Source: an uncultured Thermoleophilia bacterium (GTDB lineage Bacteria; Actinomycetota; Thermoleophilia; UBA2241). Taken from it: 64,000 nucleotides of DNA. The notes under the pieces are model-generated. The model was not told where the DNA came from. It saw nothing but the letters and a program-made list of their open reading frames with translations, and did not search any database. Shown one piece after another: positions 4,185 through 23,381 of this stretch. The first letter of the stretch is position 1, and each line of letters starts with the position of its first letter. The stretch spans positions 167,950 through 231,949 of the forward strand of contig CAVXJO010000007.1 in the NCBI GenBank assembly GCA_963762125.1, in the 5' to 3' direction. Position numbers and translations under genes: made by a program.

Positions 4185-4620
4185 GGCCTCCGGACCTCAG
4201 CGTGCCGACTCCCTGCTCAGGGCGAGCCGCGCTTCACGAGCGCGTGATGGCTTGAGCCGCGGCGCACGGCTGGCGCGCCATCGGAAGCCTCGTCACACCG
4301 CCTCCCTCCTGGTTGGATATTGTTCCGTCGGGAGGGCCCCCTGATCGTGCTGCCCTCGCGACCCCGAATCGCCAAACACAAGGAGTGTCCACATATCGAA
4401 CTACGTTATCGCCATGCGAACAATAGAGATGTGGGCCACAATAGGGACGTGCGGAATCCGTGTCAAGGGGCAAATGAAATGCTCATCCCACTTAGGCGCG
4501 AGTGCGAGCCTGAATATGGGAAGTGGCTACCAAACTAGCATGGAGCGGGACTCCGCCCGACGAGCCGCACGTGGGAGAGGAGAGGCCGGTCGACCGTGGC
4601 CGAGCCCAGTGACAGACCAC

Positions 4621-4653
4621 CCGGACGTTCGTACAGTGTCGAAAGACGTCCGG
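4621..4653. promoter_or_regulatory. Perfect 8-bp inverted repeat (CCGGACGT-N17-ACGTCCGG) in the 570-bp intergenic/leader region upstream of the liv-like operon
   Basis: Read directly from the sequence. The locally lower-GC region 4320-4540 probably holds the promoter. Confidence 0.35.
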
Positions 4654-4757
4654 GCCCGGGTGGCACCGGCTGCGAATTGGGAGGCGGCCCGTCGCGGAAC
4701 GGGCGAGAGCCGGGTCAGAAAGAGTTGGCGGGCGCGGAGAGCGCCGCCTGCGCGGCG

Positions 4758-5492
4758 TCACGCGCGCGTACCACAGCAGCCACGATCTGACTCGTGGTTC
4801 GCGTCCCAGTGTTCCTTGGTCACGACGGCGGCGATCGAGACGACGTCGCCCATGACGCTGCGCACGTAGGCGCCGCACGCGCAGACGCCCAGTGTGTACT
4901 CTTCCAGGTCGTAGGCGAGGCCGGTGCGCCGCACCTCGGCGACCTCCGCCCTGAGCACGTCCCGGTCGGTGATGGTCTTGCCGGTCATGCGGATGAGCTC
5001 CTGCGGCAGGATGTCTTCCATCTCAATCGGTGAGAGCGAGGCCAGCAGGGCCTTGCCGTTGGCGCTGCAGTGCAACGGCCCGCGCGTGCCCACGTTGGTG
5101 ATGGCCCGCATCACTCGGCGCGTGACGTACTGGTCGACGAACAGCACCTCGCCCGCATACAGCACCGCCTCTTCGGTGTGCTCGTCGATCTCACGGGCGA
5201 GTTGCTCGAGGAACGGCCGCATGTCGTTGCGGATGTCGCGGGTATTGGCGATGGCAACGCGCATGAGCCCCGGGCCGATCAGGATCCTTCCCGAGGGCAG
5301 CATGCGCACGAAATCCTCGGCGGCGAGCGCCTTGACGAGGCGGTATACCGTCGGGCGAGGGATGTCGCACTGGTCGGCGATCTCCTGCGGGGTCAGGCCC
5401 TCCGAATTGGCGGACAGCGCCCGGAGCAGGCTGGCCACCCGGGCGACCACCTGAATCCCATCCCGGCGCTCCTTCGGCGACGTCTCGATCAT
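4758..5492 (-). CDS. IclR-family transcriptional regulator
   Basis: N-terminal wHTH (LTPQEIADQCDIPRPTVYRLVKALAAEDFV) and a C-terminal IclR effector domain. 244 aa. Confidence 0.88.
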   Translation of the reverse strand: MIETSPKERRDGIQVVARVASLLRALSANSEGLTPQEIADQCDIPRPTVYRLVKALAAEDFVRMLPSGRILIGPGLMRVAIANTRDIRNDMRPFLEQLAREIDEHTEEAVLYAGEVLFVDQYVTRRVMRAITNVGTRGPLHCSANGKALLASLSPIEMEDILPQELIRMTGKTITDRDVLRAEVAEVRRTGLAYDLEEYTLGVCACGAYVRSVMGDVVSIAAVVTKEHWDANHESDRGCCGTRA

Positions 5493-5711
5493 TTCGGCTC
5501 TACCTCACGACGAGACAGCGGCTGCCGATGACCGGCAACCAGGTGACTGTATTTTCGGCTCGCGCCGCGAGCCCGCACACTCCCGGCACGTCACAGATGA
5601 CACCGAACCACGATCGGCGCCGCTCACCCCGGCGCAGGACGATTGCTGTTCGCATCATGGACATGAGTATCACGGTGTGCGCGCGTGTGGCAAGCGACGG
5701 CCGGCACAAAC

Positions 5712-5744
5712 GGGGCGCCGCCGGCCTGAGCCGGGCGGCGCCCC
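5712..5744. terminator. GC-rich hairpin (GGGGCGCCGCCGGCC-tgag-CCGGGCGGCGCCCC)
   Basis: Near-perfect 14-bp stem downstream of the molybdoenzyme small-subunit gene (minus strand). Confidence 0.4.
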
Positions 5745-5838
5745 TCACACGCCTCGCGGCAGCAGAACGCCGCGGGCTGCTGCGGGGATGGAGGGCAGGC
5801 GGGGGGTCGGCCCTCCAGGGGGCCCGCAGCGATCTGGG

Positions 5839-5871
5839 GGCCGGCGCCGCTCGAAAGCGGCGGCGCCGGCC
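5839..5871. terminator. GC-rich hairpin (GGCCGGCGCCGC-tcgaaa-GCGGCGCCGGCC) immediately after the small-subunit stop
   Basis: 12-bp perfect stem. No U-tract, which is typical for high-GC actinobacterial terminators. Confidence 0.45.
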
Positions 5872-5878
5872 GCTTCTC

Positions 5879-6717
5879 CTACGCCTTCTCCAGCACCACC
5901 GTCCCGGCGTTCAGGCTGGCGTCAACCTGCACGGTGAGCTCGGCCGGCTTGTAGCCGTCGGCCTCGATGCGCACGACGTACTCGTGGCCCGGCTCGAGGA
6001 TAGTCGATGGCGACCTCGCCGAACAGGTCGGCGATGCCCTCGGCCGCCGATGGCGCCGTCGCGCAGCACGGTCACCGTCGCGCCGGCTCGGCGCACTCGT
6101 CGCTGTCGCCGAACACGACGCTGGCGCCGACGAACGCCTTCTCCCAGCGGTGCAGGTTCTTGTAGTACACGCGCGGCTTGGTGCCGAGGGAGTCGCGGTA
6201 GCGCTCGAGGCTTCTCCGTGGCGACCAGCGCCTCGATCTCCGCCTCCTCGGCGAGCACGAGCTTGATCGCCTCGGTCGGGCAGACCTGGCTGCAGCGCGT
6301 CTCGGTCCAGCCGTCGTCGAGCAGGTGCGCGCAGCCGGTGCACTTCTGCGCCAGTTCCTTCTCCTCGTTCCAGTAGATGGCCGAGTACGGGCAGCTGGCG
6401 ACGATCTCCTTGCGGCCCTTGGCCTTGACCGGGTCGATGATGACGAGGCCGTCGTCGCGCTTGTACACGGCGCCGTCGGCGGTGAGGCAGGGCGCCTCGT
6501 CGCAGTGCATGCACGGCATGGGCAGGTAGGCGGTCTGCACCAGCGGGTACTGGCCGCGCTCCTTGCGCTTGATGTTCATCCAGCGGTGGCCGTGCCAGGG
6601 CTGGGCCGCCGAATACGGCGGGAACTCGTTGTCGACGAACTCGTCCTTATCTGCCAGGAAGCAGTCGTTGCAGTCGTGACAGCGGGCGACGTCGACGATC
6701 AGGTGCCAGCTCTTCAT
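5879..6717 (-). pseudogene. Molybdoenzyme small (beta) subunit, copy 1: a 3x[4Fe-4S] ferredoxin domain plus a C-terminal beta-barrel domain (pyrogallol transhydroxylase BthL-like). The C-terminal half is disrupted by about 4-5 frameshifts.
   Basis: The N-terminal 180 aa are intact (MKSWHLIVDVARCHDCNDCFL…CMHCDEAPCL…CTGCAHLLDDGWTETRCSQVCPTEAI). The remainder is found piecewise in three frames: …TKPRVYYKNLHRWEKAFVGASVVFGDSDEC…, GATVTVLRDGAIG, …EPGHEYVVRIEADGYKPAELTVQVDASLNAGTVVLEKA. The start ATG overlaps the alpha stop (ATGA). Confidence 0.7.
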
Positions 6718-9318
6718 GAAGCCTCCCCCTCCCACTTCTCGACCTGGATCAGGCAGGAGTTGTTGGACATTGCCTGGGACGTCGGTGTGATCGTCCGCAT
6801 GTTGGTGAGGATGTTGACGCAGCCGGCGATGTCGGTGGACTCTCCAGGCTCGCCGGTCGGCAGGTAGTCGGCGCAGCTCTCGTAGGAGTGAACCGTGCCC
6901 GGCGCCACCCGTTCGGTGAGCTGCGCCGAGAGGATCACGGCGCCGCGGTCGTTGTAGGCGCGGATGAGGTCGCCTTCGGCGATGCCCCGCGCCTTCGCGT
7001 CGACGCTGTTCAGGCGCATGATCCAGTAGCGGTGCCCGTCGTCATGGAGGATGCGGTGCTCCTCCACCTCGTTGAGCCACGTGCCCTTGGAATCGCCCAT
7101 GGTGTGGAAGCTGAAGCGCGGGTGCGGGCTCACCATCTGCAGCGGGTACTTGCCGTACAGCTCGGTGGTGTGGTGCCCCTCCCAGCTGGCGATGAACTGC
7201 GGGCCCATCGCGGGACGCTCGGGGTCGACGACGTCCATCTCGAGGTTCTTGAGCGTCTTGCTCACGAACTCGATCTTGCCCGACGGCGTCTGCAGGCCCT
7301 GGAAGGCGACGGTGTCGCCGGGGCGCGGGCCCCAGTCGGGCGTGTCCCGCTTGCGGCCCTCGGCGAACCAGCGCATGGCCGGCGTGCTCTTGTAGTCGTC
7401 GGGGAACGGCACGACGACGTAGCCCTTCTTCTCGAAACTGCTCCCAGGTGGTGATCTTGGGGAGGTCGGTCGCGTCGAAGTAGGCCTTGCACCAGTCGAG
7501 CTCGTCCATGCCGCCCTCGGTGAAGACGTCGCCCATGCCCATGCGCTCGGCGACGGCGGCGAAGATGTCGTAGTCCGACTTGCTCTCGCCGAGCGGCTCG
7601 ATGCACTTCTTCTGGAAGACGATCACCCGGTGGTTGGTCTGGTTGTGGTTGTCCGGGATGTAGCCCGAGCAGTTGCCGAACTCGCTCATGTCCCAGCGCT
7701 CGAAGTTGGTGCAGGCCGGCAGGATGATGTCGGCGAACTTGGCCTCGCCCTCCATCCAGATGGACTGGTTGACCACCGTGCGCACGCCGCCCTCCCGATA
7801 CGCCTTCACGTAGCGGTTGGTCTGCTGCATGGTGCCGAAGAACGAGCCGCCGTAGCGCCAGTACATGGTGACGAACGGGTAGCCGGGCGCCGGGTACTGG
7901 TACTTCTGCATCTGGCTCTGGATGGACGGGCCGCAGAAGCCCTTGCCGCGCCACTCGAACTTCTCGTGCATCATCGCCTCGGGGATGCGCAGGCGCGGGA
8001 TGGCGATGCCCTCGGTCGAGTCGTGGGCGTTGACCGTGGGGTGCAGCCCGGTGCTATGGGCGAAGATGCGGTACAGCATGCGGTAGCCGGCCGCCGACTT
8101 CTCCGGGTCGCCGGACATGCCGCCCTCGGCGTAGCCGGGGAACACGAACGAGCAGTCTGAGGGCGCGCCCTGCGAGGTGCCCCAGATGTTGACGCCCGGC
8201 TTGCCGTAGCCCTGCATCGCGGCGAGCGCGACCATGGTGCGCGCCCACTCGTTGCCGGTGGCAGAGCGGCAGGCGCCGCCCCAACCGCCGAGGCCGCCGG
8301 CGGCGAGCATGACCTTCTTGGCGCCCCACTCGCGCGCGAGGGCGCGGATCTGCCGGGCTGGGATGCCGGATTCGCGCTCGGCCCACTCCGGCGTCTTGGG
8401 GACGTTGTCGCTCTTGCCGAGGACGTAGTCCTTCCACTCGTCGAACCCGATGGTGCGCTCGGCGACGTACTCCTTGTCGTAGAGGTCCTCGGCGAGCCAT
8501 GTGTGCGCGATGCCGAGGCCGAAGGCGACGTCGGTGCCCAGACGCGGCGCGAACCACTTGTCCGAGAAGAGTTCGGCCGTCGGATTGTAGTAAGGATCGA
8601 CGAACACCATCTTGATGCCGAGTTCCTTCATCCAGTAGCGCCGCGAGGTGCTCTCGAAGGCGGAGTAGATGCCGCCGCCGGTGGACTCAGGGTCGGCCGA
8701 CCAGAAGACGACCATCTCGGTGTGCTTGAGCGCGTCCTCGAGCAAGTCGTACTGCTCGGGGATGCCGAGGCGGTGGCTGTTGCCCCACATCGGCATGGCG
8801 CCCCAATGCCAACCCTCCCAGCTGTCCGGGTTGTGGGCCGTGTGGACCATCCCCATCAGGTTCAGGAAGCGGTAGTAGGCGCTGTGGCGATAGCCGAGGT
8901 TGCCCCAGAGGTGGTGCGAGCTGCAGGTGGTGAGGATCGCGCCGGGCCCGTTCTCGCGCTTCTCCCGGATCATCTCGGTGGTGACCAGATCGAGCGCCTC
9001 GTCCCAGCTGATCTCCTCGTAGCCGGAGATGCCGCGGTTCTGCGGGTTGCGCTCACCCTCCGGGTCCCAGTCCACGCGCTTCAGCGGGTGCAGGATGCGC
9101 TTCGGCGAGTACACCATGGACCGCTGCGCCTGCGCGTGCGGCGAGAGCGTCGTGCGGCGCGGGGGCGTGAACGTCCTGCCCCGCGCCTCGATCACCCAGT
9201 CGCCCTTGTCGTCGTCGGCCAGGTCGATCGGCGTCATGCGGACGATCTTGCCGTCCTCGACGTCGACGAACACCGGGCCGCCGGTGGTGCAGTTTGTGAG
9301 TCGCTGGACTTCGCCCAT
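6714..9318 (-). CDS. Molybdopterin (bis-MGD) oxidoreductase large subunit, copy 1. It is a pyrogallol-phloroglucinol transhydroxylase AthL-like member of the DMSO-reductase family. One frameshift near 7435.
   Basis: About 860 aa when the two ORFs 7042-9318 and 6714-7412 are joined. No N-terminal Cys cluster and no Tat signal. The frames join at …TTWEQF|EKKGYVVVPFPDDYK, where the plus strand reads ctcgaaactg and one base fewer would be in frame (a homopolymer +1). Confidence 0.75.
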
Positions 9319-9509
9319 ACTCGTGTGACCTCGCTTCCCAGGTGCTGCGTGCCGGCCGTACAGGCCGCCCGCGTTCCCCCGAACGCTGATTCATCCGCAT
9401 CGCGGACACGCTCGCCCGCATCATGGGCATCGTATCGTCGTGGGACGGCAAGTCAAGCGCGGCCGCCGCTGCGGCCCGCCGCGCCACATGCGCTACACTG
9501 CATCCTCGC

Positions 9510-10647
9510 CATGGGGCCCCAGCAGACAGACCGGGAACGCGTGCGCATCGGCGTCCTGCTCGCCGGCGGAGAGTCGCGGCGCATGGGCCGCGACAAGCGC
9601 GGACTGCGCCTCGGCGGCGAGACGCTGCTCGCGCGCAACCTCGCCTTTCTGCGCGGCCTCTTCCCGGTGACCGGACTCTCCGTGCGGAGCGCCCTCCAGG
9701 CGCCGGCGGACCTGCCCGAGGACGTCGTCGTGATCCCCGACGAGGTGCCCGGATCGCCGCTCGCCGGCCTCGCGTCGATCCTCGGACGGTTCGACGAACC
9801 CGTCTTCGCCATGGCGGCCGACCTCATCGCACCCGAGCTCGGCGCTGTCGGGCGCGTCCTCGACGCGTTCGACGAGGTGGACGTCGCTCTCCCCGTCGCC
9901 GAAGACCACCTCGAGCCGCTTCACGCCGTGTACGGCCCCGGCTGCCTGCCGCACATGCGCCGGCTGCTCGCCGCCGGCGCGCACAGCATCCTCGACCTCT
10001 TCCCGCTCGTGCGCGTGGCGCGCGTGCCGTTCGCCGACACGGCGCCGTTCTTCAACGTGAACACGCCGGCCGACTGGGTCGAGGCGCAGCGCCGGCTTGG
10101 CGGCGGCGCGGAGCCGGCGCCCGACGAGCGGCCGGCGCGGAACGGCGATGGGCCGGTCGTCCTCGGCATCGTCGGCCGGCCCAACAGCGGCAAGACGACG
10201 CTCATCGAGAAGCTGATCCCCGAGTTCACCCGCCGCGGCCTGCGCGTCGGCGCCGTCAAGCGCGTGGCCAGGTTCGACATCGACATGCCCGGCAAGGACT
10301 CGTGGCGTCACGGGCAGGCCGGCGCCGCCGCCTACACGGTCGCCTCGGCCTCCAAGCTCGCCTTCATCGCGCGCCGCGACGAGGAGGCGACCCTCGAGGA
10401 GATCGTCGCGCGCTACTTCGGTGGCTTCGACGTCGTGGTCTGCGAGGGCTACCGCCGCGAGGCGCCCGACGTCGTCGAGGTGTTCCGCGCGGCCGCCGGC
10501 TATGAGTCGATGGTCTGCGAGCCCGGCGAGCCGTTGGCGCTCGTCACCGACGCCGGCCTCGCGCACCGGCACCGCTTCGGGCTCGACGACGCCGCCGCCC
10601 TGGCGGCGTTCCTCGTCGCGCGTCTCGGCCTCGCCGCGCGCGCGTAG
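9510..10647 (+). CDS. mobA: Fused molybdenum cofactor guanylyltransferase MobA / MobB protein
   Basis: N-terminal domain LLAGGESRRMGRDKRGL (MobA nucleotide-binding motif). C-terminal domain GIVGRPNSGKTTLIEKL…DMPGKDSWRHGQAGAAAY (MobB P-loop). The upstream part of the long ORF is antisense to the neighbouring gene and is not coding. Confidence 0.85.
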
Positions 10648-10673
10648 TCTCCGCCGCCGCGGCGCGCGACCTG

Positions 10674-10997
10674 CTACGCGTCGGTGTCCATGATGTGCTC
10701 GAGCACCTCGAAGTGAGGCATGGAGACGTTGCCCGTCGCCCACTTGATCGCCTCGTGCAGCTCGAGTCCCTCGGCGTGCTCGCGGGCCTGCTGCGCGGTC
10801 TCGAACTCGAGGACGACCCTGATGTCGTTCGGGTCGCCGTCGACGTGCCACACGCGAGCGCCCTTCGACCCGAGGCGCCGACGGCGCTCCTGGTCGTCCA
10901 GGAAGACCTCCTTGAACGTCTCGTAGTCGCCAACGACGTGGTCGATGATCAACAGCGCCATCTCACTGCCTCTCTTTCGCCGGATGAGCGACGTCAC
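10674..10997 (-). CDS. Small conserved hypothetical protein, possibly an alpha+beta barrel of the Dabb/YCII type. The likely start is the internal MALLIIDHV at about 10961.
   Basis: 95-107 aa ORF with protein-like composition (…DYETFKEVFLDDQERRRRLGSKGARVWHVDGDPNDIRVVLEFETAQQAREHAEGLELHEAIKW…). No confident family assignment. Confidence 0.45.
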   Translation of the reverse strand: MTSLIRRKRGSEMALLIIDHVVGDYETFKEVFLDDQERRRRLGSKGARVWHVDGDPNDIRVVLEFETAQQAREHAEGLELHEAIKWATGNVSMPHFEVLEHIMDTDA

Positions 10998-11216
10998 AGT
11001 AGCGAACGTGGTCCGCTGTGAAAAGGGAATGCTGGCGCCGCCGCGGCCGCCGATGGTACCCTCTTCTCGTCCATCTCCAAGCCCTTCGCCCTACGGCAGC
11101 AGCTACGGGCGCTGGGCCGTACCACGGACAGACCGTGGGGCGGCGATGTGTGGTCGCCGTCGTGGGCCCGGGCGGAAACGCCCGGACCTCCCCGTGCTTG
11201 GAAAGGAGCCAGGGAC

Positions 11217-12125
11217 ATGACCATCCCGACCAATGGTGGTCGGGCCGTCGCAGCCGAGCCGACCGGCGAGGTACGCGTGACGACCCTTCCGTCGCACCAC
11301 CCCTCTCGAGGCGCGCAGCGACGTGCCGCCGCCTCCGGCCGCCGCGGCGCGACCGCGCCACCCCGGCGACCGCTCGCGATCGTCGTCGCGCTGCTCGCGG
11401 CGCTGGCGCTCGCGGCCACGGCCTGCGGCACGGCGTCGGACACGACCGCCGGCCGGCCGCGCGAGCTCAGCGTCTTCGCGGCGGCGTCCCTGACCGACGC
11501 CTTCACGCAGCTGGGCAGCGACTTCACCGCCGCCCACCCGGACGTGAGGGTCAGCTTCAACTTCGCCGGCAGCAACGACCTGGTGACGCAACTGCAGCAG
11601 GGAGCGCCGGCGGACGTGCTCGCCACCGCCGACGACGCGAGCATGGAGAAGGCCGGCCGGCTCACCGGCCGGCCGCAGTCGTTCGCGACCAACAAGCTCG
11701 TCGTCGCCGTGGCGCCCGGCGACCCTGAGCACATCGCCGGGCTCGCCGACCTCGCGCGCAAGGACGTCAAGGTCGTGCTGGCTGCCCCGGAGGTGCCCGC
11801 CGGCAAGTACGCCGCGACGGTCCTCGGTGAGGCCGGAGTCAGCGTGGAGCCCGTCTCCCTCGAGGTCTCCGTCAAGGGAGTCGTGACCAAAGTCTCGCTG
11901 GGCGAGGCCGACGCCGGCATCGTCTACGTCACCGACGTCAGCGCCGCCAAGGGCGCGATCGACGCGGTCACCATCCCCGGCGATCAGAACGTGATCGCAA
12001 GCTACCCCATCGCCACGCTGAACAGCAGCCGGAATGCCGACGACGCGAAGGCGTTCATGGACTTCGTGCTGGCGGCCGACGGTCAGAAGGTCCTCGCCGA
12101 CTACGGGTTCCTGCCGGCGCCGTGA
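11217..12125 (+). CDS. modA: Molybdate ABC transporter substrate-binding protein ModA
   Basis: RBS GGAAAGGAG 6 nt upstream of the ATG. Signal peptide with lipobox (LAATACG). ModA-fold motifs (SFNFAGSNDLVTQLQQGAPADVLATAD…GIVYVTDV). Confidence 0.85.
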   Translation: MTIPTNGGRAVAAEPTGEVRVTTLPSHHPSRGAQRRAAASGRRGATAPPRRPLAIVVALLAALALAATACGTASDTTAGRPRELSVFAAASLTDAFTQLGSDFTAAHPDVRVSFNFAGSNDLVTQLQQGAPADVLATADDASMEKAGRLTGRPQSFATNKLVVAVAPGDPEHIAGLADLARKDVKVVLAAPEVPAGKYAATVLGEAGVSVEPVSLEVSVKGVVTKVSLGEADAGIVYVTDVSAAKGAIDAVTIPGDQNVIASYPIATLNSSRNADDAKAFMDFVLAADGQKVLADYGFLPAP

Positions 12126-13066
12126 GCAAGGGCGCCGACAGCGACCCGCGCGCGGACGCGCGCAGGAGAGAACCGGCGGGGAACCTGGCGGTCGTCGCCG
12201 GGGACGCGATCGCCCCCCCGGACCGGCCCGAGCCGGCGCCCTGGTGGGCCCCGGCCCCGGGGGCCCGGCGCGCCTCGCGTCCCGGAGGCGACCGGGCGCC
12301 GCTCGGCTTCGTGCCGCTGGCTGCGGTCGCGGTCGTGTTCCTGACCCTGCCGCTGATCGCCCTGCTCGCGCGCGCACCCTGGCGCAGCCTGCCCGGCGAC
12401 CTGACGGCGCCCGGCGTGCTCACGGCGCTTCGCCTCTCGCTCATCTGCTCGGTCGGCGCGCTCTGCCTGTCGCTCGTGTTCGGCGTGCCGCTCGCCTGGC
12501 TGCTCGCGCGCGTCCCCTTTCGCGGCCGCAACCTGGTGCGCGCCCTGGTGCTCCTGCCCATGGTGCTGCCGCCGGTCGTCGGCGGCGTCGCCCTGCTGCT
12601 CGCTTTCGGCCGCAACGGCCTCGCGGGGCAGTGGTTGGACCGCCTCTTCGGCATCACGCTGCCGTTCTCGACGGCGGGTGCGATGCTCGCCGAGACGTTC
12701 GTCGCCATGCCGTTCCTCGTCATCACCATCGAGGCCGGCATCCGCGCCATGGACCGGCGGTACGAGGACGCCGCCGCGACCCTGGGCGCCGGACGCTGGC
12801 GGACGTTCCGCCTGGTCACCGTGCCGCTGATCGCGCCGGCGCTCGCCGCGGGAAGCGCCCTCTGCTGGGCGCGCGCTCTCGGCGAGTTCGGCGCCACCAT
12901 CACCTTTGCCGGCAACCTGCCGGGGACGACCCAGACGATGCCGCTCGCCGTGTACCTGGCGCTGCAGAACAACGTTGATGCGGCGATCACCCTTAGCCTT
13001 GTCATGCTGGTGATCTCGCTGGCGGTACTCGTCGGTCTGCGGAGCCACTGGTTCCCGTCACGATGA
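12122..13066 (+). CDS. modB: Molybdate ABC transporter permease ModB (the start is probably internal)
   Basis: CysTW/ModB permease with an EAA-like loop (…AGRWRTFRLVTVPLIAPALAAG…). Overlaps the modA stop. Confidence 0.85.
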   Translation: MSKGADSDPRADARRREPAGNLAVVAGDAIAPPDRPEPAPWWAPAPGARRASRPGGDRAPLGFVPLAAVAVVFLTLPLIALLARAPWRSLPGDLTAPGVLTALRLSLICSVGALCLSLVFGVPLAWLLARVPFRGRNLVRALVLLPMVLPPVVGGVALLLAFGRNGLAGQWLDRLFGITLPFSTAGAMLAETFVAMPFLVITIEAGIRAMDRRYEDAAATLGAGRWRTFRLVTVPLIAPALAAGSALCWARALGEFGATITFAGNLPGTTQTMPLAVYLALQNNVDAAITLSLVMLVISLAVLVGLRSHWFPSR

Positions 13067-13100
13067 TGAGACTCACGACACACACCGCCGGAGCACCGGC

Positions 13101-14159
13101 GTGAGCCTTCAGGCCGCCGTCGGCCTGCGCCGGGGCACCCTGGACCTCGACGTCGAGCTGGTCGTCGCGAGCAGCGGAGTCGTGGTGCTGCTGGGACCGA
13201 ACGCGGCGGGTAAGACCACGTTGCTGCGGGCGCTGGCCGGACTCGTGCCGCTGGAGCGCGGCCGGGTGACGCTCGACGACGTCGTCCTCGAGGACCCGGT
13301 GGCGGGCCTGCGCGTACCGACGGAGAGGCGACCGATCGGGGTGGTCTTCCAGGATTACCTGCTGTTCCCACACATGACTGCGCTCGAGAACGTCGCCTTC
13401 GGCCTGCGCTCCCGCGGCGCCGGCCGTGGCGCCGCAAGAGAGAGCGCCCTGGGCATGCTCGAGCGCGTCGGCCTCGCAGATCTGGCCGCAGCGAAGCCGA
13501 GGGCGCTCTCGGGCGGCCAGGCCCAGCGGGTCGCCCTGGCGCGGGCGCTGGCCACCGACCCGCGCCTGCTCCTGCTGGATGAGCCGCTCTCCGCGATGGA
13601 CGCGGGTGCGCGCGCGGAGCTGCGGCGCGGCCTGTCCCGTCACCTCGCCGCCTACGAGGGCACCTGCCTCGTGATCACGCACGACCCCATCGAGGCCATG
13701 ACGCTGGGCGACAAGCTGATCGTCCTCGAGGCCGGCCGCGTGGTGCAGGCGGGCAGCCCGGAAGAGCTCTCGTCTCATCCGCGCTCGCGCTACGTCGCCG
13801 ACCTGCTCGGCCTGAACCTCTACCGCGGCCAGGCCCACGATCGGGCCATCGTGCTTGCCGACGGGCATCGCCTCATCGCCGCCGACCCCATGCCCGACGC
13901 CGGCGACGTGTTCGCCGTCATCCCGCCGCGAGCCGTAGCCCTGCACCGCGTGCTCCCCGAAGGCTCGCCGAGGAACGTCTGGAAGGGCGTCGTCGAGGAT
14001 CTCGACATCGTGGGCAACCATGTGCGCGCGCACGTGGGCGGCGAGCTGCCGATCATCGCCGAGGTGACCCCGGGAGCCGTCGCCTCCATGCGCCTGGACG
14101 ACGGCGGCCCGGTGTTCGTCGCCGTCAAGGCCGTCGAGGTCGAGGTCTACGAGGCGTGA
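13101..14159 (+). CDS. modC: Molybdate ABC transporter ATP-binding protein ModC with a C-terminal TOBE/Mop domain
   Basis: Walker A GPNAAGKTT, signature LSGGQAQRVALARAL, Walker B LLLDEPLSAMD. About 110-aa C-terminal extension typical of ModC. Confidence 0.88.
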   Translation: MSLQAAVGLRRGTLDLDVELVVASSGVVVLLGPNAAGKTTLLRALAGLVPLERGRVTLDDVVLEDPVAGLRVPTERRPIGVVFQDYLLFPHMTALENVAFGLRSRGAGRGAARESALGMLERVGLADLAAAKPRALSGGQAQRVALARALATDPRLLLLDEPLSAMDAGARAELRRGLSRHLAAYEGTCLVITHDPIEAMTLGDKLIVLEAGRVVQAGSPEELSSHPRSRYVADLLGLNLYRGQAHDRAIVLADGHRLIAADPMPDAGDVFAVIPPRAVALHRVLPEGSPRNVWKGVVEDLDIVGNHVRAHVGGELPIIAEVTPGAVASMRLDDGGPVFVAVKAVEVEVYEA

Positions 14160-14202
14160 TCCCGGGTTTCCTCACGGCGGCTTCTTCGTTACGCTCCACG
14201 GC

Positions 14203-14736
14203 ATGAACGAGCATCGCGAGACCATGACCGCGGATAAGCCCGCCCTCGTCGCCATCGTCGGCAAGAGCGACTCCGGCAAGACGACTCTCATTGAGAAGGT
14301 CGTGCCGGAACTCGTCAAGCTCGGCCTGCGCGTCGGGACGGTCAAGCACGACGCGCACTCCTTCGAGATCGACCACCCCGGCAAGGACTCGTGGCGGCAC
14401 GGCCAAGCCGGCGCGGAGGCGTACGTCATCGCCTCTCCGGAGCGTCTCGCCTTCATCACGAAGCTGGACGGCGAGCTCCCGCTCACCGAGATCGTCGGTC
14501 GCTACTACGACGGTTTCGACATCGTCGTCGCCGAGGGCTACAAGCGCACCGCCCCGCACCGCGTCGAGCTCTTCCGCGTGGGCGCCGGCCACACCGAGCC
14601 GCTGTGCGCGCCCGGTGAGGCGATCGCCCTCGTCACCGACGCGGAGCTGCAGCACGAGCACCGCTTCGGCCTCGAGGACGGCGCCGGCCTCGCCGCGTTC
14701 CTCGCCGCCCGCCTCGAGGCCTTGCGCCAGTACTGA
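14203..14736 (+). CDS. mobB: Molybdopterin-guanine dinucleotide biosynthesis adapter MobB (second, stand-alone copy)
   Basis: VAIVGKSDSGKTTLIEKV…HPGKDSWRHGQAGAEAY. Paralogue of the C-terminal domain of the mobAB fusion. Confidence 0.85.
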   Translation: MNEHRETMTADKPALVAIVGKSDSGKTTLIEKVVPELVKLGLRVGTVKHDAHSFEIDHPGKDSWRHGQAGAEAYVIASPERLAFITKLDGELPLTEIVGRYYDGFDIVVAEGYKRTAPHRVELFRVGAGHTEPLCAPGEAIALVTDAELQHEHRFGLEDGAGLAAFLAARLEALRQY

Positions 14737-14998
14737 GCGCGGGGTCGACGAGCCAGCCTCCGGGAGAACGACGCGCCGGCTCGCGCGATCGGGCGCATCG
14801 CCCATCGGCCTCCTGCCGCGGCGCCTCTCTCTCCTCCCCCGGACCCCTCTTCGCGAACGGCGCATGGCGCTTGACTTTGCCCCCCGCAGCGATAGACGAT
14901 GCCCGTGATGCGGTCGAGCTAATCCGCATTGCGGACTACCTTGGAGTCACGCGCGACGGCCATCGCGTCCGGCTCCGCGTCAGCGACCATGGGGAGGT

Positions 14999-17604
14999 GT
15001 GAGTATGGCGGAGGACATGAGCAAGACCGGAGCCTCCGGCGAGACGACGCTGATCAGGGACATCAGCTTCTGCGGCGTCCCGGAGAACGGCTCCAATGCA
15101 TCGATGGTGGACGTGAAGGACGGCAAGATCGTCCGCATCCGCCCGATGCACTATGACTGGAAATACAAGAAGGCGGATCTCAACCCCTGGAAGTTCGAGG
15201 TGCGCGGCAGCACGTTCGAGCCCAGCATGAAGACCCTGATCCCGCCCTACAGCATCGCCTACAAGAAGCGCGTCTACTCGCCCGCCCGCATCCGCTACCC
15301 GATGATGCGCGTGGACTTCGACCCCAACGGCGAGCGCAACCCGCAGAACCGCGGCGTGAGCAAGTTCAAGCGCATCTCCTGGGACAAGGCGCTCGACATC
15401 ATCACCAGCGAGATGAACCGCATCAAGGAGAAGTACGGCCCGACCGCCCTGCTCTACCAGTGCGACCAGCACGGCGAGAACAAGGTCGTGCAGGCCTGCC
15501 ATGGCGCCGGCCGCAAACTGCTCCGCGAGTGGGGCGGCTTCACCCTGCAGATGCGCCAGCCCGACAGCTGGGAAGGCTGGTGGTGGGGCAACAAGCACTT
15601 CTGGGGCTGCGAGCCCGTCGGTCAGGGCCAGCAGAGCAACCTGCTCTGGGACATCTCCAAGAACTCCGAGCTGCTGCTGTTCTGGGGCTGCGACCAGGAG
15701 ACCACCCCGTGGGGCTGGCAGGGCCAGCTCCCGAGCCGCCTGAGCTACTGGTGGAGTGAGATCGGCATCAAGCAGATCTACGTCTGCCCCGACCTCAACT
15801 ACGCCGCCGCCGTGCACGCCGACCGGTGGATCCCGGTGCTCCCCAACACGGACGCCGCGATCTACCTGGCATCATGCACCGTGGTTCAAGGAGGGCACCT
15901 ACGACAAGGAGTACCTCGCCACCCACGCCGTGGGCGTCGACAAGTACGAGGCCTACGTCATGGGCGAAGAGGACGGCGTCGAAGAAGACGCCGGAGTGGG
16001 CGTCGCCCATCTGCGGCGTCCCCGCGCGCGTCATCAAGGCCCTCGCCAAGGAGTGGGCGAGCAAGCGCACGACCGTGGTCATCGGCAACGGCGGCCCCGG
16101 CATCCGCGGCCCCTACGCCACCGAGCCGGCGCGCCTGCAGGGCATCTGCCTCGCCATGCAGGGCCTCGGCAAGCCGGGCCAGAACCAGGCCAAGATGATC
16201 GAGTGGGGCCTGTTCGACAAGCCCGACCAGTACGCCCAGCCCAAGCCGCTGCGCGTGCCGTACCTGCGCAAGCGCCTACACCGGCGGCCACCCGGACGAG
16301 AGCAACCACCCGTCCTTCATCCCCAAGACCTACATCCCCAAGGGCATCCTCGAGGGCGAGTGCGACTGGTGGGGCTGCGAGTCCGAGACCGCCGACCGCG
16401 CCAACCAGTTCGAGCACTACAAGTACCCGGCCGACGGCTGCTCCAAGATCCACATGGTGTGGACCGACTCGCCGAGCTGGATCACCTGCTGGAACGGCTG
16501 GCAACGACTACGTCAAGGCCATGCGCCACCCGGACATCGAGTTCATGTTCGCGCAGCACCCCTGGCTCGAGAACGACTGCCTGATGGCCGACGTCATCCT
16601 CCCCGTGAACACCAAGCTCGAAGAGGACGACATCGCCGGCGACATCTTCAGCGGCCAGTACCAACCTGCTCTATCCCCGAGCACAAGTGCATCGAGCCCC
16701 TCGGCGAGAGCTACAGCGACTACGAGATCGCCGTGCATGATCGCCGAGCGCCTCGGCCTCAAGGAGGAGTACACCGGCGGCAAGACCATGCCCGAGCTCA
16801 TCAAGTACGGGTACGAGACCTCGCGCTGCGAGGACCTCATCACCTGGGAGGAGCTCAACGAGAAGGGCTACTACGCGGTCCCGACGGACGACGATTGGGA
16901 GGACATGCCCGCCGGCTTCTACAACTTCTACAAGGACCCGGAGAAGTATCCGCTGACCACGCCGACGGGCAAGCTCGAGTTCGAGGCGCGGGTCTCTCGA
17001 GCAACTTCCCCAACGACCTCGAGCGGCCGCCGGTACCCAAGTGGGTCGCCCAGGGCATCACCCACGAGGAGACCGTGGGCACCGAGCGCTCCAAGAAGTA
17101 TCCGCTGCTCGTGTGCTCCAACCACCCGCGCTGGAGCGTCCACAGCCAGCACGACGACATCACCTGGCTGCGCGAGATCAAGACCTGCAAGGTCACCGGT
17201 CCCGACGGCTACCAGTACCACCCGATCTGGCTGCACCCCTCCGAGGCCGAGAAGCGCGGCATCAGCACGGCGACATGGTCTAGCATCTTCAACGAGCGCG
17301 GCACCGTGCTCGCCGGCGCCTACATCACCGAGCGCATCATGCCCGGCGTGATCTACATCGACCACGGCGCCAAGTGGGACCCGATCGTCCCCGGCGAGAT
17401 CGACCGCGGCGGCGCGATCAACACCATCGTGCCGCGCGACACCACCTCCAAGAACGCCGTCGGTCACGCCGTGAGCGGCTTCCTCGCCGACATGCGAGAA
17501 GACCGACATGGAAGAGCTGAAGCCAAGTATCCGGAAGCGTTCGAGAAGCCGTTCCACCCGTGTGCCGGTCCCGGCTTGGAAGCCTGCATCTGGGGGAGGG
17601 CGTG
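14999..17604 (+). pseudogene. Molybdopterin oxidoreductase large subunit, copy 2 (AthL-like paralogue, about 55% aa identity to copy 1). Disrupted by at least 8 single-base frameshifts.
   Basis: Homologous segments alternate between all three forward frames: 14999-15890, 15880-15990 (…WFKEGTYDKEYLATHAVGVDKYEAYVMGEEDGV), 15990-16290 (KKTPEWASPICGVPARVIKALAKEW…QNQAKMIEWGLFDKPDQYAQPKPLRVPYL), about 16500-16660, 16740-16990 (…TWEELNEKGYYAVPTDDDWEDMPAGFYNFYKDPEKYPLTTPTGKLEFEA), 17000-17500 (…KWVAQGITHEE…GVIYIDHGAKWDP…). Confidence 0.75.
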
Positions 17605-18435
17605 ATGGGCAAGGTCCTCGTCATCGATCTGAACATCTGCAACGGCTGCTACAACTGCCAGGTGGCCTGCAAGGACGAGCACGTCGCCAACGACTGGTCG
17701 CCCATCGCCAAGCCGCAGCCCGACACAGGGCAGTTCTGGAACAAGGTCACCGACCTCGAGCGCGGCCAGGTGCCCAAGGTCAAGGTCACGTACATGCACA
17801 GCATCTGCCAGCACTGCGACGACGCGCCGTGCATCCCGGCCTGCAACGTCGAGGCGATCTACAAGCCGCGACGACGGGGCCGTGATCATCGACCCGGACA
17901 GGTGCCGCGGCAACCAGCTGTGCCTCGAGGCGTGCCCGTACGAGGACGTCATCTGGTTCAACGACTCGCTGAACATCGCCCAGAAGTGCACGTTCTGCGC
18001 GCACCTCCTGGACGACGGCTGGACCGAGCCGCGCTGCGTGGACGCCTGCCCGACCGGGGCGTTCACGGTTCGGCGACGAGGACGAGCCCGGAGATCAAGG
18101 AGCTCATCGCCAAGGCCGAGCCGCTCAAGCCCGAACTGGCCGTCAAGCCACGCGTCTACTACATCGGCCTGCCCAAGCCGTTCATCGCCGGCGCCGTGTT
18201 CGAGCCCGACGTGGACGAGTGCACCGAGGGCGCCAAGGTCACGGCCATGAGGGTCGGCAACGGCAAGGTCTACGAGGCCGTCACCGACAGCTACGGCGAC
18301 TTCTGGCTCCGCGACGTGGAGCCCGGCGAGTACACCGTGCTCGTCGAGAAGGAGGGCTACCTGCCGCAGAAGATGGGCCCCGTCGACGCCGCAAAGGACA
18401 TCAACGTCGGCGACATCGCCGTGTGGAAGGCCTGA
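17605..18435 (+). pseudogene. Molybdoenzyme small (beta) subunit, copy 2 (3x[4Fe-4S] plus C-terminal beta-barrel domain), with at least 2 frameshifts
   Basis: RBS GGGGGAGGG precedes the ATG. Frame 1 reads MGKVLVIDLNICNGCYNCQVACKDEH…CQHCDDAPCIPACNVEAIYK. Frame 2 (17882-18060) reads …IIDPDRCRGNQLCLEACPYEDVIWF…CTFCAHLLDDGWTEPRCVDACPTGAFTV. Frame 1 then resumes with …EIKELIAKAEPLKPELAVKPRVYYIGLP…EPGEYTVLVEKEGYLPQKMGPVDAAKDINVGDIAVWKA. Confidence 0.75.
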
Positions 18436-18483
18436 GTCAGGCCTGAGCGTCGAGCGCCCAAGGGCGCCTGCGTGCAACAGACC

Positions 18484-18515
18484 GGAGGGGCCGGGCCGCG
18501 AGGCCCGGCCCCTCC
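18484..18515. terminator. GC hairpin GGAGGGGCCGGGCC-gcga-GGCCCGGCCCCTCC downstream of molybdoenzyme copy 2
   Basis: Perfect 14-bp stem, read from the sequence. Confidence 0.45.
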
Positions 18516-18684
18516 CCGTACGGAGGAGCGGGAGAGGCGACGCCCGCACCAGCTTGCCGGCCATCAGTGACGCCTCCGCGCTTGATTACCTCCGGAGCGA
18601 GCCTTACAGTGTGTCTAGAGAGCGCGTCAGCCGCTCCGCGACCCTATCGCGACCGCGTCGCGTTCACGGACAGGAGATTGCGAC

Positions 18685-18894
18685 ATGCCAAACCTCGGCG
18701 CACCAGAACTCATCATCATCGCTCTGGTGATCCTCTTGCTCTTCGGCGCCACCCGCCTTCCCAAGCTGGGCAAGTCGATGGGCCAGAGCATCAAGGGGTT
18801 CAAGGACGGACTCAACGACGCCTCGGAAGACGACGAGATCGTGGACGTCAAGCGCGACGCGACGGCCGACGACAAGGACGCCAAGGCTTCCTGA
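18685..18894 (+). CDS. tatA: Twin-arginine translocase subunit TatA
   Basis: MPNLGAPELIIIALVILLLFGATRLPKLGKSMGQSIKGFK followed by an acidic tail. 69 aa. A perfect IR CGCGAC-cgc-GTCGCG sits just upstream. Confidence 0.9.
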   Translation: MPNLGAPELIIIALVILLLFGATRLPKLGKSMGQSIKGFKDGLNDASEDDEIVDVKRDATADDKDAKAS

Positions 18895-18911
18895 GCGCCA
18901 CCAGAGAACGG

Positions 18912-18947
18912 ACGACGACGGCCCGCCTGCAGGCGGGCCGTCGTCGT
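18912..18947. terminator. Bidirectional terminator hairpin (16-bp perfect stem ACGACGACGGCCCGCC/GGCGGGCCGTCGTCGT) between the convergent tatA and ispF
   Basis: Read from the sequence. Confidence 0.5.
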
Positions 18948-19001
18948 TAACGCTCCTGCAGCCACATCGCCCCACGGTCCGGGCTGGGCCCGCCGCCCGC
19001 G

Positions 19002-19465
19002 TCAGCGACTGAGCAGGCAGACGGCGTGGGCGGCGATACCCTCTCCGCGTCCCTCGAACCCCATGCCCTCGGTGGTCGTGGCCTTGACGCTGACGGCGTC
19101 GCTGGCGACGCCCAGGGCGGCGGACAGGTGCTCACGCATCTCAAGCCGATAGCCGGAGAGCCGCGGCCGCTCACAGACGATGGTCACGTCGACGTTCTCG
19201 ACCTTCCAGCCGGAATTGGCGAGCCAGGCGATCACGCGCTCGAGCAGCGTCATGCTGGAGGCGCCCTCGAAGGCCGGGTCGGTGTCGGGGAACAACTCGC
19301 CGATGTCGCCGAGACCGGCGGCGCCGAGCAGGCCGTCCATCAGCGCGTGGACGGCCACATCGGCGTCCGAGTGCCCAGCGAGTCCCTGCGCGTGGTCGAT
19401 GGGCACACCGCAGAGGACGAGCTCGCGCCCGTCGGCGAAGCGATGCGCGTCGTAGCCGCCGCCGA
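19002..19465 (-). CDS. ispF: 2-C-methyl-D-erythritol 2,4-cyclodiphosphate synthase IspF. The conserved N-terminus lies upstream of the first ATG (19406) and has no canonical in-frame start.
   Basis: …[39 protein letters not shown]… In the same frame, upstream of the MPIDH start, the sequence encodes the essential G-x-D-x-H region, overlapping the ispD stop codon in the +1 frame. Confidence 0.75.
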
Positions 19466-19467
19466 CC

Positions 19468-20244
19468 CTAAACGTCGGTCTCGACCTCCCAGGAGAGCAG
19501 CGCGCCGGCCAGCGGCAGGTCCGCCGGCGTGGTGATCTTGACGTTGGCGGGCGTGGAGGGCACGAGGCTCACGGAGTAGCCGGCGCGCTCCAGAAGCATC
19601 GCGTCGTCGGTCGCGCCGTTGAGTTCGGTGCGCGCGTACACGTCGCGCAGGGCGTCGGCGCGGAACACCTGTGGCGTCTGCGCGGCCCAGAGGCCGGCGC
19701 GGTCCACGGTTCCCGACACCGCGCCGCGCTCACCCTCGCGCTTGAGCGTGTCGCTGACCTCGACCGCCGGCACGGCGCCTTGCGTGCGGCGAAGCGCCCC
19801 GAGGCAGGCCTCGAAGACGTGCTTGGAGAACAGCGGCCTGGCGCCGTCGTGGACGGCGATGACCGCCGCGTCGTCCGGCACCAGGACGAGGCCGGCGCGC
19901 ACAGAATCAGGGCGCGTGGCGCCGCCTTCTGCGACGAGCAGCGGTTTGGCGTCGTCAAAGGCCACGAGTTCGTTGGCGAAACGCACCGTGTGAGACGGGT
20001 GCAGCACGACGACGATGCCGTCCACGCAACTCATGTCGAGCAGGCGGTGCACCGAATGCGAGAGGATCGTCTCGCCGCCGAGCAGCAGAAACTGCTTGGA
20101 CTCCCCATCGGGCAGTCCCATCCGCTGGCTCTCGCCGGCGGCGGCGACGATGACCCAGGTCTCCCCGGCTTGTTGGTCCTCCATGTCCATCCCCTCCCGG
20201 TCAGTCCGCCCGCCGTGGGGCCCTTCGGGCCGGCAGGCGCTCAA
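19468..20244 (-). CDS. ispD: 2-C-methyl-D-erythritol 4-phosphate cytidylyltransferase IspD (likely start MDMEDQQ… at about 20190)
   Basis: WVIVAAAGESQRMG…KQFLLLGGETIL…GATRPDSV. 240-258 aa. Confidence 0.88.
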   Translation of the reverse strand: MSACRPEGPHGGRTDREGMDMEDQQAGETWVIVAAAGESQRMGLPDGESKQFLLLGGETILSHSVHRLLDMSCVDGIVVVLHPSHTVRFANELVAFDDAKPLLVAEGGATRPDSVRAGLVLVPDDAAVIAVHDGARPLFSKHVFEACLGALRRTQGAVPAVEVSDTLKREGERGAVSGTVDRAGLWAAQTPQVFRADALRDVYARTELNGATDDAMLLERAGYSVSLVPSTPANVKITTPADLPLAGALLSWEVETDV

Positions 20245-20277
20245 CAGCGCTCCGTACTCCTCGTGACACGACTAGCC

Positions 20278-21351
20278 CTAGTGCGCAGCCGGCGGTGGAG
20301 CGCTCACGCGGCTGAAGATCATCTTGCCCGAGGGGCTCTGCAGAACGCTGGTCACCTCGGCCTTGACGCGCGAGCCCACCAGGCTGCTGCCCGACTCCAC
20401 GACGATCATGGTGCCGTCGTCGAGATAGCCGACACCCTGGTCGTGCTCGCGCCCTTCTCGCAGGATCTTGACTTCGATGACCTCGCCGGGCAGCACGGCC
20501 GGCTTGACCGAGTTGGCGAGGTCGTTCACGTTGAGCAGCTTGACGCCCTGGATCTCGGCGACCTTCTTGAGCGTGTAGTCGGTGCTGACGATCTGCGCCC
20601 CGGTGTCCTTGGCGAAGCGCACGAGCTTGGCATCGACGGCATCGATGTCCGCGTAGTCGGTGCCGTCGATGGTGACGGCGCCCGAGCTGTTCTGCAGACG
20701 CTTGACGAAGTCGAGTCCGCGGCGGCCGCGCACGCGCTTCTCCGCATCGGCCGAGTCGGCCAGCCGCTGGAGCTCCTCGATGACGAAGCGCGGCACGAGG
20801 AGCTCGCCCTCGACGAAGCCGGTGTCGATGATCTCCAGGATGCGTCCGTCGATGATGGCGCTGGAGTCGAGGAGCTTTGCGGGCGTGAGGCCCGGGATGA
20901 CTTCGAACGCGCCGCGCACACCCAGGAGCCGCAGGATCTCGATGTGCTTCTTGGCGGCAAGATAGGCGGTGAAGTATCCGGCCAGCAGGTAGATAGGCAC
21001 CGTGAGGTACGGACCCACGATGGGGATGCGGACGAGGGCGATGCTGATGAGCGTGGCGATGAAGAGGCCGACCACCACGCCGCCGATGCCGACGACGACC
21101 TCGGCGCCGGTCGCGCGCGCCATGACCTCATCGACGCGGTCGAGGCCGCGGCGCATGAGCCGCGAGATGACGACACCGAGCACATAGCCGAGCCCGAGGC
21201 CGGCGAACGTGAAGACGACCAGCCAGAGGATCTTGCCGTTCTGGTCGAGCGCCGGCGCGAACGTCGACTCGCGGATGCGGGCGGCGAGCTGGTAGCCCGC
21301 CAGGGCGCCCAGCAGGGCGAGCAGCCCGCGGATGGCGGGCTGCAGGACGCC
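20278..21351 (-). CDS. PIN/TRAM-domain membrane protein (YacL-like). The 5' end is uncertain; the long ORF extends to 21465 but overlaps carD.
   Basis: N-terminal TM helices, a PIN-like domain (…LLDSSAIIDGRILEIIDTGF…) and a C-terminal TRAM-like beta-barrel (…GEVIEVKILREGREHDQGVGYLDDGTMIVVE…). It sits in the conserved carD-yacL-ispD-ispF order. Confidence 0.8.
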   Translation of the reverse strand, partial: GVLQPAIRGLLALLGALAGYQLAARIRESTFAPALDQNGKILWLVVFTFAGLGLGYVLGVVISRLMRRGLDRVDEVMARATGAEVVVGIGGVVVGLFIATLISIALVRIPIVGPYLTVPIYLLAGYFTAYLAAKKHIEILRLLGVRGAFEVIPGLTPAKLLDSSAIIDGRILEIIDTGFVEGELLVPRFVIEELQRLADSADAEKRVRGRRGLDFVKRLQNSSGAVTIDGTDYADIDAVDAKLVRFAKDTGAQIVSTDYTLKKVAEIQGVKLLNVNDLANSVKPAVLPGEVIEVKILREGREHDQGVGYLDDGTMIVVESGSSLVGSRVKAEVTSVLQSPSGKMIFSRVSAPPPAAH

Positions 21352-21385
21352 GGCTGGCCGGCGCGGGCGGCCCGCCGGGCCGGGT

Positions 21386-23337: not shown

Positions 23338-23381
23338 GGTCAGCGGCCTCGGCCGCGGACGCCCGCCGCCGTCACGACCCC

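Follow-up and report, generated by a model that had tools for sequence, protein, structure and literature searches.

Are the densely packed breaks in the reading frames of two molybdoenzyme operons of an uncultured Thermoleophilia bacterium mutations of the organism, or did they arise when its sequence was put together? The question is raised by a 64,000-nt stretch of a 425-kb contig from a metagenome-assembled genome (MAG), here called the window, which is predicted to encode two alpha/beta pairs resembling pyrogallol transhydroxylase (AthL-like). On the minus strand lie the molybdopterin subunit alpha1 (6714-9318; 867 aa once a single extra base is dropped) and the 4Fe-4S subunit beta1 (5879-6717; Pfam Fer4_11), the 3' part of which is broken by three insertion events. 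The second pair, on the plus strand, consists of the molybdopterin subunit alpha2 (15005-17605; 865 aa when corrected), which carries 13 indels, and of beta2 (17605-18435), a 4Fe-4S subunit homologous to beta1 with three insertions. The start codon of each beta gene overlaps the stop codon of its own alpha gene (ATGA). Alpha1 and the corrected alpha2 contain the Pfam domains PF21423, PF00384 and PF01568, and residues 1-865 of alpha1 match residues 1-870 of the pyrogallol hydroxytransferase large subunit (PDB 4v4c_A) over the full length (1216 bits). The AthL-specific first domain, the molybdopterin domains and the 4Fe-4S beta subunit following each alpha subunit are shared with AthL/BthL of Pelobacter acidigallici (PDB 4v4c). 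Unlike in that system, however, two divergent paralogous pairs share a cluster with mobA-mobB, modABC and mobB, and alpha2 differs from AthL in its longer N-terminus and a weaker score of the first domain. The genes between the two pairs (9511-14736, plus strand) encode, according to Pfam, a MobA-MobB fusion, ModA, ModB, ModC and MobB, all intact, and a small minus-strand ORF (10674-10961) is found among them.

The frame breaks are genuinely present in the assembled sequence. A codon-usage Viterbi decoder applied across the whole window, alongside GC3 frame plots, revealed that the frame switches repeatedly on the same strand, in the absence of stop codons, at 5883-9294 (minus strand) and 15003-18432 (plus strand). 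Alignments with 7-10 orthologous loci and with L079, the closest relative, placed each event to the base and yielded 20 private indels of 1-2 nt within 6.9 kb: one in alpha1, three in beta1, 13 in alpha2 and three in beta2. The beta1 events form a first patch (6041-6212) of private insertions, 4 nt altogether (1 nt at 6041, 2 nt at 6085-6086 and 1 nt at 6212), which are absent from 10 orthologous loci and fall in a stretch with a high degree of polymorphism among the relatives. The sole break of alpha1 is a single extra A at 7435 (AA to AAA on the plus strand), where the decoder also changes frame (7435/7436); it is the surplus base that had been read in cagtttcgag. The second patch (15870-18086) holds 16 private 1-nt indels in 2.2 kb, 11 insertions and five deletions. 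In alpha2 there are deletions after 15870, 15881, 16988, 17263 and 17521, and insertions at 15982, 16273, 16496, 16659, 16673, 16735, 17281 and 17494; beta2 has insertions at 17866, 18065 and 18086.

These 20 events, out of 22 candidates in the window, occupy 12% of the coding DNA (rate ratio 72-fold, binomial p = 9e-17). The initial annotation had pointed to extreme clustering on the basis of about 16 frame changes, and the clustering proves stronger than that. Its count of about five events in beta1 was too high and that of at least eight in alpha2 too low. The intact intervening genes served as an internal control: the decoder found no frame switches in the six genes at 9511-14736, and alignment of the intervening coding sequence with L079 revealed no frame-breaking gaps.

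One explanation is that the pathway became dispensable in the population and that both AthL-like operons have very recently turned into genuine pseudogenes through an accumulation of frame-breaking mutations. Both of the functionally linked operons have been struck, whereas the intervening genes for the cofactor and for transport, which serve other Mo/W enzymes too, have been spared. In addition, the entire Mo cluster upstream of tatA is missing from the relative L078 (88% identical), where a transposase is found instead; loss of the pathway thus does occur in the clade, which makes real inactivation conceivable. The alpha2 and beta2 genes of L079, an independent assembly, are also broken and carry four private indels of their own. 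Nevertheless, comparison with close relatives, which had been proposed as a check, speaks against decay. All 20 events are missing from the 7-10 orthologous loci, none is common to L079 (approximately 95% identity, in two aligned blocks spanning window positions 12682-24966), and the alpha1 and alpha2 ORFs are uninterrupted in the relatives.

Decaying pseudogenes of reductive genomes such as that of Mycobacterium leprae show relaxed constraint, stop codons, a deletion bias and disruptions common to close relatives. The window resembles them only in that the frames of genes intact in relatives are disrupted at several points, and the other traits are not seen here. The corrected alpha2 is free of internal stops over its 865 aa and 95% identical to L008 at the amino acid level. 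Its dN/dS against the relatives, another of the proposed checks, is 0.15-0.21, within the 0.09-0.27 of intact orthologue pairs, and neither this ratio nor the codon positions of the differences gave a sign of relaxed selection in alpha2. On the branch specific to the window there are 30 substitutions (7, 6 and 17 at codon positions 1, 2 and 3), to be compared with 20-70 in six intact relatives and 0 in L008; neither nonsense codons nor a lineage-specific excess of substitutions accompanies the indels in alpha2. Of the mismatches between the window and L079 in alpha2/beta2, 30-33% concern codon positions 1 and 2 (in alpha2 approximately 70% are at the third position). In the flanking intact genes this share is similar, 18-25%, and neutral decay would be expected to give about 67%. 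Divergence from L079 is 2.6-3.2% in alpha2/beta2 against 4.1-4.8% in the flanks.

The kinds of change are equally hard to reconcile with decay. In bacterial mutation, substitutions far outnumber indels, and in pseudogenes the indels are mostly deletions and bear the marks of slippage. Between the window and L079, however, alpha2/beta2 display approximately 20 indels, counted over both assemblies, per 101 substitutions, as against about one frame-breaking indel (in radA of L079) per approximately 320 substitutions in the flanking coding DNA. Insertion events outnumber deletions 15 to five, and nine of the 14 single-base insertions add a base that differs from both neighbours, i.e., they are untemplated. 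The view that the events are indels in short homopolymers was not borne out for most of them: only five of the 14 repeat an adjacent base, and no run is longer than 3. A basecalling error at homopolymers or methylation motifs was likewise rejected as the main cause, since most events lie outside runs and no common motif was found. Moreover, the indels sit at sites that are polymorphic among relatives and some of them appear to merge two alleles, neither of which is predicted by neutral decay. Taken together, pseudogenisation, one of the readings initially offered, is considered unlikely.

If the indels were nevertheless real, they would suggest an unknown and highly local insertional mutation process. 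Targeted or transcription-associated insertional mutagenesis might, for instance, have struck the two separate operons of the pathway within a short time and silenced the AthL-like enzymes through mostly untemplated insertions without substitutions, sparing the intervening genes, which we regard as very unlikely. Still less credible, in our opinion, is a biologically hypermutable or recoded locus, subject to targeted indel mutagenesis, phase variation or programmed frameshifting, although hypermutability had been entertained at the outset. The clustering is indeed extremely non-random, and the net frame is regained by the end of both alpha2 (+8, -5) and beta2 (+3). Such restoration has, however, a chance of approximately 1 in 9 for two genes, and it fails in alpha1 (+1) and beta1 (+4). 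The 20 indel contexts contain no repeat tracts, slippery heptamers or common motif. No conserved slippery shift site was found for programmed ribosomal frameshifting; the orthologues are single ORFs, and because relatives encode the same proteins in a single frame, the sites are without conservation. To our knowledge, twenty different recoding sites across four genes have no precedent. An equally dense patch of the same type is furthermore present in unrelated genes of another assembly, L065, where 17 single-base insertions (13 of them non-duplicating) and two deletions fall within 4.5 kb of three unrelated genes.

The sites of the indels tend to vary among the relatives: local polymorphism is twofold at them (p approximately 0.001). 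Five of the 15 insertions produce superstrings of two alleles that relatives carry, namely those at 15982, 16273, 16659 and 17494 and the 2-nt insertion of beta1 at 6085-6086. At 17494, for example, ATC and TGC are found in relatives and ATGC in the window, and at 16659 TAC and ACC correspond to TACC. A sliding nearest-relative analysis along alpha2 gave no clear mosaic, L008 being the closest nearly throughout.

Judged from these comparisons, the 20 indels are very probably a technical artefact of the assembled consensus and not mutations of the organism. The arguments are that they are private, that the corrected gene shows no sign of relaxed selection, that their spectrum is non-biological, that they fall at polymorphic sites and partly merge alleles, and that a patch of the same type occurs elsewhere. 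A localised error of assembly or polishing was among the first suggestions, and its placement at paralogous loci is the part of it that has to be given up. If, in assembly or polishing, reads had been mis-mapped between the two paralogous loci of the genome itself or the loci had been collapsed, this would agree with both loci being affected and with their arrangement as inverted copies of one type of operon. The two copies, however, share 67-75% DNA identity over short segments, too low for long reads to mis-map, and the merged alleles match orthologues of other species and not the other paralogue. In the same cluster, mobB (14238-14716) and the MobB domain of the MobA-MobB fusion (10152-10627) are 72% similar and yet clean. 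Collapse of the paralogues thus appears highly improbable.

A consensus artefact would be in line with the way in which genomes of this clade have been obtained. Flye-style "contig_N" records and MFD Nanopore MAGs make up the closest relatives, and the source contig is most probably, like nearly all of them, a Nanopore-only metaFlye + Medaka assembly. The MFD MAGs are Nanopore-only, and their mmlong2 workflow consists of Flye followed by one round of Medaka (PMC12313526). In 40 MFD Nanopore MAG loci, homology-verified frameshifts amount to 1.0-1.1 per 10 kb, and in 33 short-read loci with the same gene neighbourhoods to 0.08-0.23 per 10 kb. These counts, from tblastn chaining, serve for comparison between technologies only, as the method recovers five of the 20 events in the window; it undercounts dense patches because gapped HSPs cross out-of-frame, stop-free stretches in high-GC DNA. 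Clusters indicated by the decoder in L044 (18.0-20.0 kb) and L040 had no covering homologues and were left out of the evidence.

Residual indel errors of Nanopore-only MAGs offer one parallel. The nearest relatives of the window belong to this class, and so does L065, whose patch is as dense as those of the window and dominated by insertions; the four private indels of L079 in alpha2/beta2 also fit such behaviour. Classic Nanopore errors, in contrast, take the form of deletions within long homopolymers or at methylation motifs and are spread genome-wide, whereas here mostly non-homopolymer insertions are concentrated in 2-kb patches. Another likeness is offered by collapsed long-read assemblies, in which nearby allelic variants lead to wrong read alignments and to INDEL errors that break ORFs, and in which phasing or correction recovers full-length genes (Cosentino et al., 2021; PMC8445201). 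In both cases 1-nt indels at polymorphic sites break ORFs, and here some of them are merges of two alleles. The published case concerns alleles of a diploid eukaryote, sequenced with PacBio and proven at the read level; in the window, the presumed haplotypes would be orthologues of different co-occurring bacterial populations in a soil metagenome, compared at the level of assembled sequence.

Mixed reads of co-occurring populations are somewhat favoured as the proximate cause. The AthL-like operons are the stretches of the locus most conserved between related populations, several of which share soil samples, and reads of other populations could be recruited to them while the contig was being assembled or polished. 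The consensus caller would then meet alleles differing at neighbouring positions; emission of both alleles would leave a 1-nt insertion and emission of neither a 1-nt deletion. Indeed, the alpha and beta genes are 88-95% identical at the DNA level to those of other species, against 78-88% for most of the flanks, and co-occurring related populations, whose orthologues are 90-96% identical in these genes, are a likelier source of foreign reads than the paralogue. Thermoleophilia MAGs with alpha/beta genes also occur together in the same sample, L004, L034 and L046 in MFD00032 and L008 and L017 in MFD02979. Across the MFD loci, AthL genes have 1.11 frameshifts per 10 kb and other genes 1.01, so AthL genes are not more prone to frameshifts there, and high conservation by itself need not lead to a patch. 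Although equally conserved, the first 860 nt of alpha2 and the greater part of alpha1 are clean too. Low effective coverage, i.e., a local loss of usable coverage, is a doubtful but possible alternative as the proximate cause of the artefact.

In terms of biology, the organism itself most likely has intact AthL-like operons, and its real genes would be expected to be functional. In public long-read MAGs, patches of this kind make catabolic genes that are conserved and probably highly expressed look like pseudogenes, and they fragment genes in protein databases; for soil Thermoleophilia they would introduce a bias into pseudogene counts, pangenome analyses and metabolic reconstructions. They may be flagged without reads as private, insertion-biased, non-slippage indels at sites polymorphic among relatives, in genes with normal codon-position statistics.

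Beyond the two operons, the decoder indicated one unexplained frame break in approximately 50 kb of coding DNA. It lies in tilS on the minus strand (40340-40370, at approximately 40353) and was located by the decoder together with three-frame translation. The initial annotation had counted about two background frameshifts, in tilS and ispF, of which that in tilS stands. The +1 junction between the ispD stop and ispF also recurs in two relatives and in 17 mostly short-read metagenome contigs and is therefore not an error.

The window has a G+C content of approximately 68-70% and a sharp frame signal in GC3 frame plots and ORF tables. Two divergent operons, pointing outward from a central gene block, encode the AthL-like (pyrogallol-transhydroxylase-like) molybdoenzyme subunit pairs: alpha1 (6714-9318) and beta1 (5879-6717) on the minus strand, alpha2 (15005-17605) and beta2 (17605-18435) on the plus strand. 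Each alpha gene combines an AthL-like first domain with molybdopterin oxidoreductase and dinucleotide-binding domains, each beta gene encodes a 4Fe-4S protein, and in both operons the alpha stop is overlapped by the beta start. Alpha1 matches 4v4c_A, the solved large subunit of pyrogallol hydroxytransferase, over its full length, and as judged from sequence the two operons add new members to the AthL-like molybdoenzyme family. The central block comprises a MobA-MobB fusion, a small ORF, ModA, ModB, ModC and MobB, and the cluster is flanked by an IclR regulator and TatA. The two MobB copies (10152-10627 and 14238-14716; approximately 72% DNA identity), one free-standing and the other fused to MobA, are both intact. 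Just 3' of tatA, between the convergent tatA and ispF, lies a perfect 36-nt GC-rich palindrome (GACGACGACGGCCCGCCTGCAGGCGGGCCGTCGTCG...; 18912-18947), which is probably a bidirectional terminator.

Stop-free same-strand frame switches were located in the window with a seven-state codon-usage Viterbi decoder trained on its clean long ORFs, and they occurred only in the two operons and at approximately 40353 in tilS. Alignment against 7-10 orthologous loci placed the breaks to the base: 13 events in alpha2, three in beta2, three (4 nt) in beta1 and one in alpha1, all private to the window. The 16 events in alpha2/beta2 were all confirmed by alignment with the closest relative, L079 (ena:ERZ25039495:contig_16852), which was found via its identical TatA and is approximately 95% identical to the window over two aligned blocks spanning 12682-24966. 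Since 20 of the 22 candidate events lie inside 12% of the coding DNA (72-fold excess, p = 9e-17), the clustering of frameshifts described in the initial annotation is confirmed, and its count of about 16 was if anything low.

Very probably, the cluster is a consensus indel artefact of a known category and not a biological feature. The indels are read as errors because four independent lines of evidence agree: absence of relaxed selection, a wrong indel spectrum, polymorphism at the affected sites and recurrence within an assembly class. Once the indels are removed, alpha2 encodes 865 amino acids uninterrupted by any stop and shares 95% identity with its orthologue; its dN/dS is 0.15-0.21 vs. 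0.09-0.27 for intact orthologue pairs. The branch of the window carries 30 substitutions, those of six intact relatives 20-70 and that of the related locus L008 none. Divergence from L079 is lower in alpha2/beta2 than in the intact neighbouring genes, and third codon positions hold approximately 70% of the alpha2/beta2 differences, as in ModBC, RadA and ClpC. None of these measures showed a trace of relaxed selection on the corrected genes. Real, very recent inactivation of the AthL-like operons is improbable given that corrected alpha2/beta2 are constrained like their intact neighbours, although pathway loss does occur in the clade. The 88% identical relative L078 (ena:ERZ25039500:contig_15643) has the tatA-ispF-ispD-...-radA-clpC order of the window; upstream of tatA (3400-6000) it carries a DDE transposase, IclR, an amidohydrolase and an ABC transporter and lacks the molybdoenzyme/mod/mob cluster, the presence of which is therefore variable in the clade.

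Relative to L079, alpha2/beta2 contain approximately 20 indels per 101 substitutions vs. approximately one per 320 in the flanking coding DNA. The former ratio is far beyond bacterial mutation output. The events comprise 15 insertions and five deletions, and the initial suggestion that they lie in short homopolymers holds for five of the 14 single-base insertions; the other nine do not duplicate a neighbouring base. Such an insertion-heavy, non-duplicating spectrum is wrong for natural indels. No motif common to the contexts of the 20 events was found, and genuine hypermutation or recoding has a very low probability. Polymorphism among the relatives is 2-fold enriched locally at the indel sites (p ~0.001), and five of the insertions spell out exactly two alleles of relatives merged into one longer string, for example ATC and TGC giving ATGC at 17494 and TAC and ACC giving TACC at 16659.

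Other assemblies show the same behaviour. Homology-verified frameshifts number 1.0-1.1 per 10 kb in 40 loci from Nanopore metagenome-assembled genomes (MAGs) vs. 0.08-0.23 in 33 short-read loci, and in the Nanopore loci the rate is equal in AthL-like and other genes. One of them, L065 (MFD05942.bin.2.329), carries approximately 17 single-base insertions, 13 of which do not duplicate a neighbour, and two deletions in 4.5 kb (within 17000-21900). This patch has the signature seen in the window, and it affects three unrelated genes, which encode an MDH-like protein, an OYE/dienoyl-CoA-reductase-like flavoprotein and an AMP-dependent ligase and are each intact in locus L039. L079 itself has private 1-nt indels, four in alpha2/beta2 and one in radA (window equivalents 15867, 16996, 17002, 18248 and 22834), and its alpha2 is called as two fragments of 256 and 556 amino acids. 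Dense indel patches thus belong to an assembly class rather than to AthL-like genes.

The loci retrieved with alpha1 are nearly all from uncultured Thermoleophilia/Actinomycetota MAGs sharing synteny with the window, many of them from the Microflora Danica (MFD) long-read project. The relatives' pipeline was Nanopore-only, with Flye assembly followed by one round of Medaka polishing (PMC12313526), and the contig of the window presumably has the same origin. Between species, no part of the locus is better conserved than the alpha/beta genes (88-95% DNA identity vs. 78-88% for most flanks). GC3 of the AthL-like genes (5879-9318 and 15005-18435) is 0.95-1.0 and their synonymous divergence between species is low (dS ~0.1), which suggests either that high expression has imposed a strong codon bias or that lineages have exchanged these genes recently. 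The same samples yielded several Thermoleophilia populations with alpha/beta genes. From this conservation, the GC3 near 1.0 and the co-sampled populations we infer that reads of other populations may have entered the pile-up over the alpha/beta stretches, where the consensus caller would have resolved neighbouring allelic differences as 1-nt insertions or deletions. Such 1-nt failure has a documented precedent in the long-read assembly of a eukaryote whose alleles were collapsed (PMC8445201), whereas the alleles here would be presumed orthologues of co-sampled bacterial populations. Mis-mapping between the two paralogous loci, one of the initial suggestions, is an unlikely source of error, since their identity is no higher than 67-75%. 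A local drop in usable coverage is a less probable technical alternative to mixed reads. Against an artefact stand the lack of breaks in stretches of alpha1 and alpha2 that are conserved to the same degree, a nearest-relative scan that gave no mosaic, and AthL genes in MFD loci that are generally no more error-prone than others. The cluster serves as a warning on pseudogene calls in long-read MAGs, and its signature could be used for read-free detection of such patches.

The ispF frameshift, initially counted as background error, does not belong there: the same ispD/ispF junction is present in L079 (6715-6845), L078 (6690-6822) and 17 metagenome contigs (L080-L096), and by this comparison it is not an assembly error. 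At the junction (19440-19480, minus strand) ispD ends in ...WEVETDV and a TAG stop (19468-19470), and the +1 frame continues as IspF with T-F-R-V-G-G-G-Y-D-A-H-R-F; no ATG, GTG or TTG precedes its essential zinc-binding N-terminal motif. GACGT[T/A]TAGGGT is conserved in the two relatives and the 17 mostly short-read contigs, and in-frame ispD-ispF fusion, allowed by the search pattern, was found in none of the hits. Candidate explanations are prfB-like +1 frameshifting at GUU/GUA-UAG-G, yielding an IspDF fusion, and non-canonical initiation at an ACG lying 9 nt 3' of a conserved GGGAGG. None of the top matches of a literature search linked ispD/ispF with frameshifting, and the junction may reflect conserved recoding or initiation at a non-canonical start.

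Apart from the operon events, one frame break in the window is unexplained, the single switch inside tilS (approximately 40340-40370, minus strand). It lies 5' of hpt and ftsH, where the DNA is very GC-rich. A 51-nt intergenic inverted repeat, 90% self-complementary (44453-44503), lies upstream of an aldehyde:ferredoxin oxidoreductase gene (44519-46261, minus strand).
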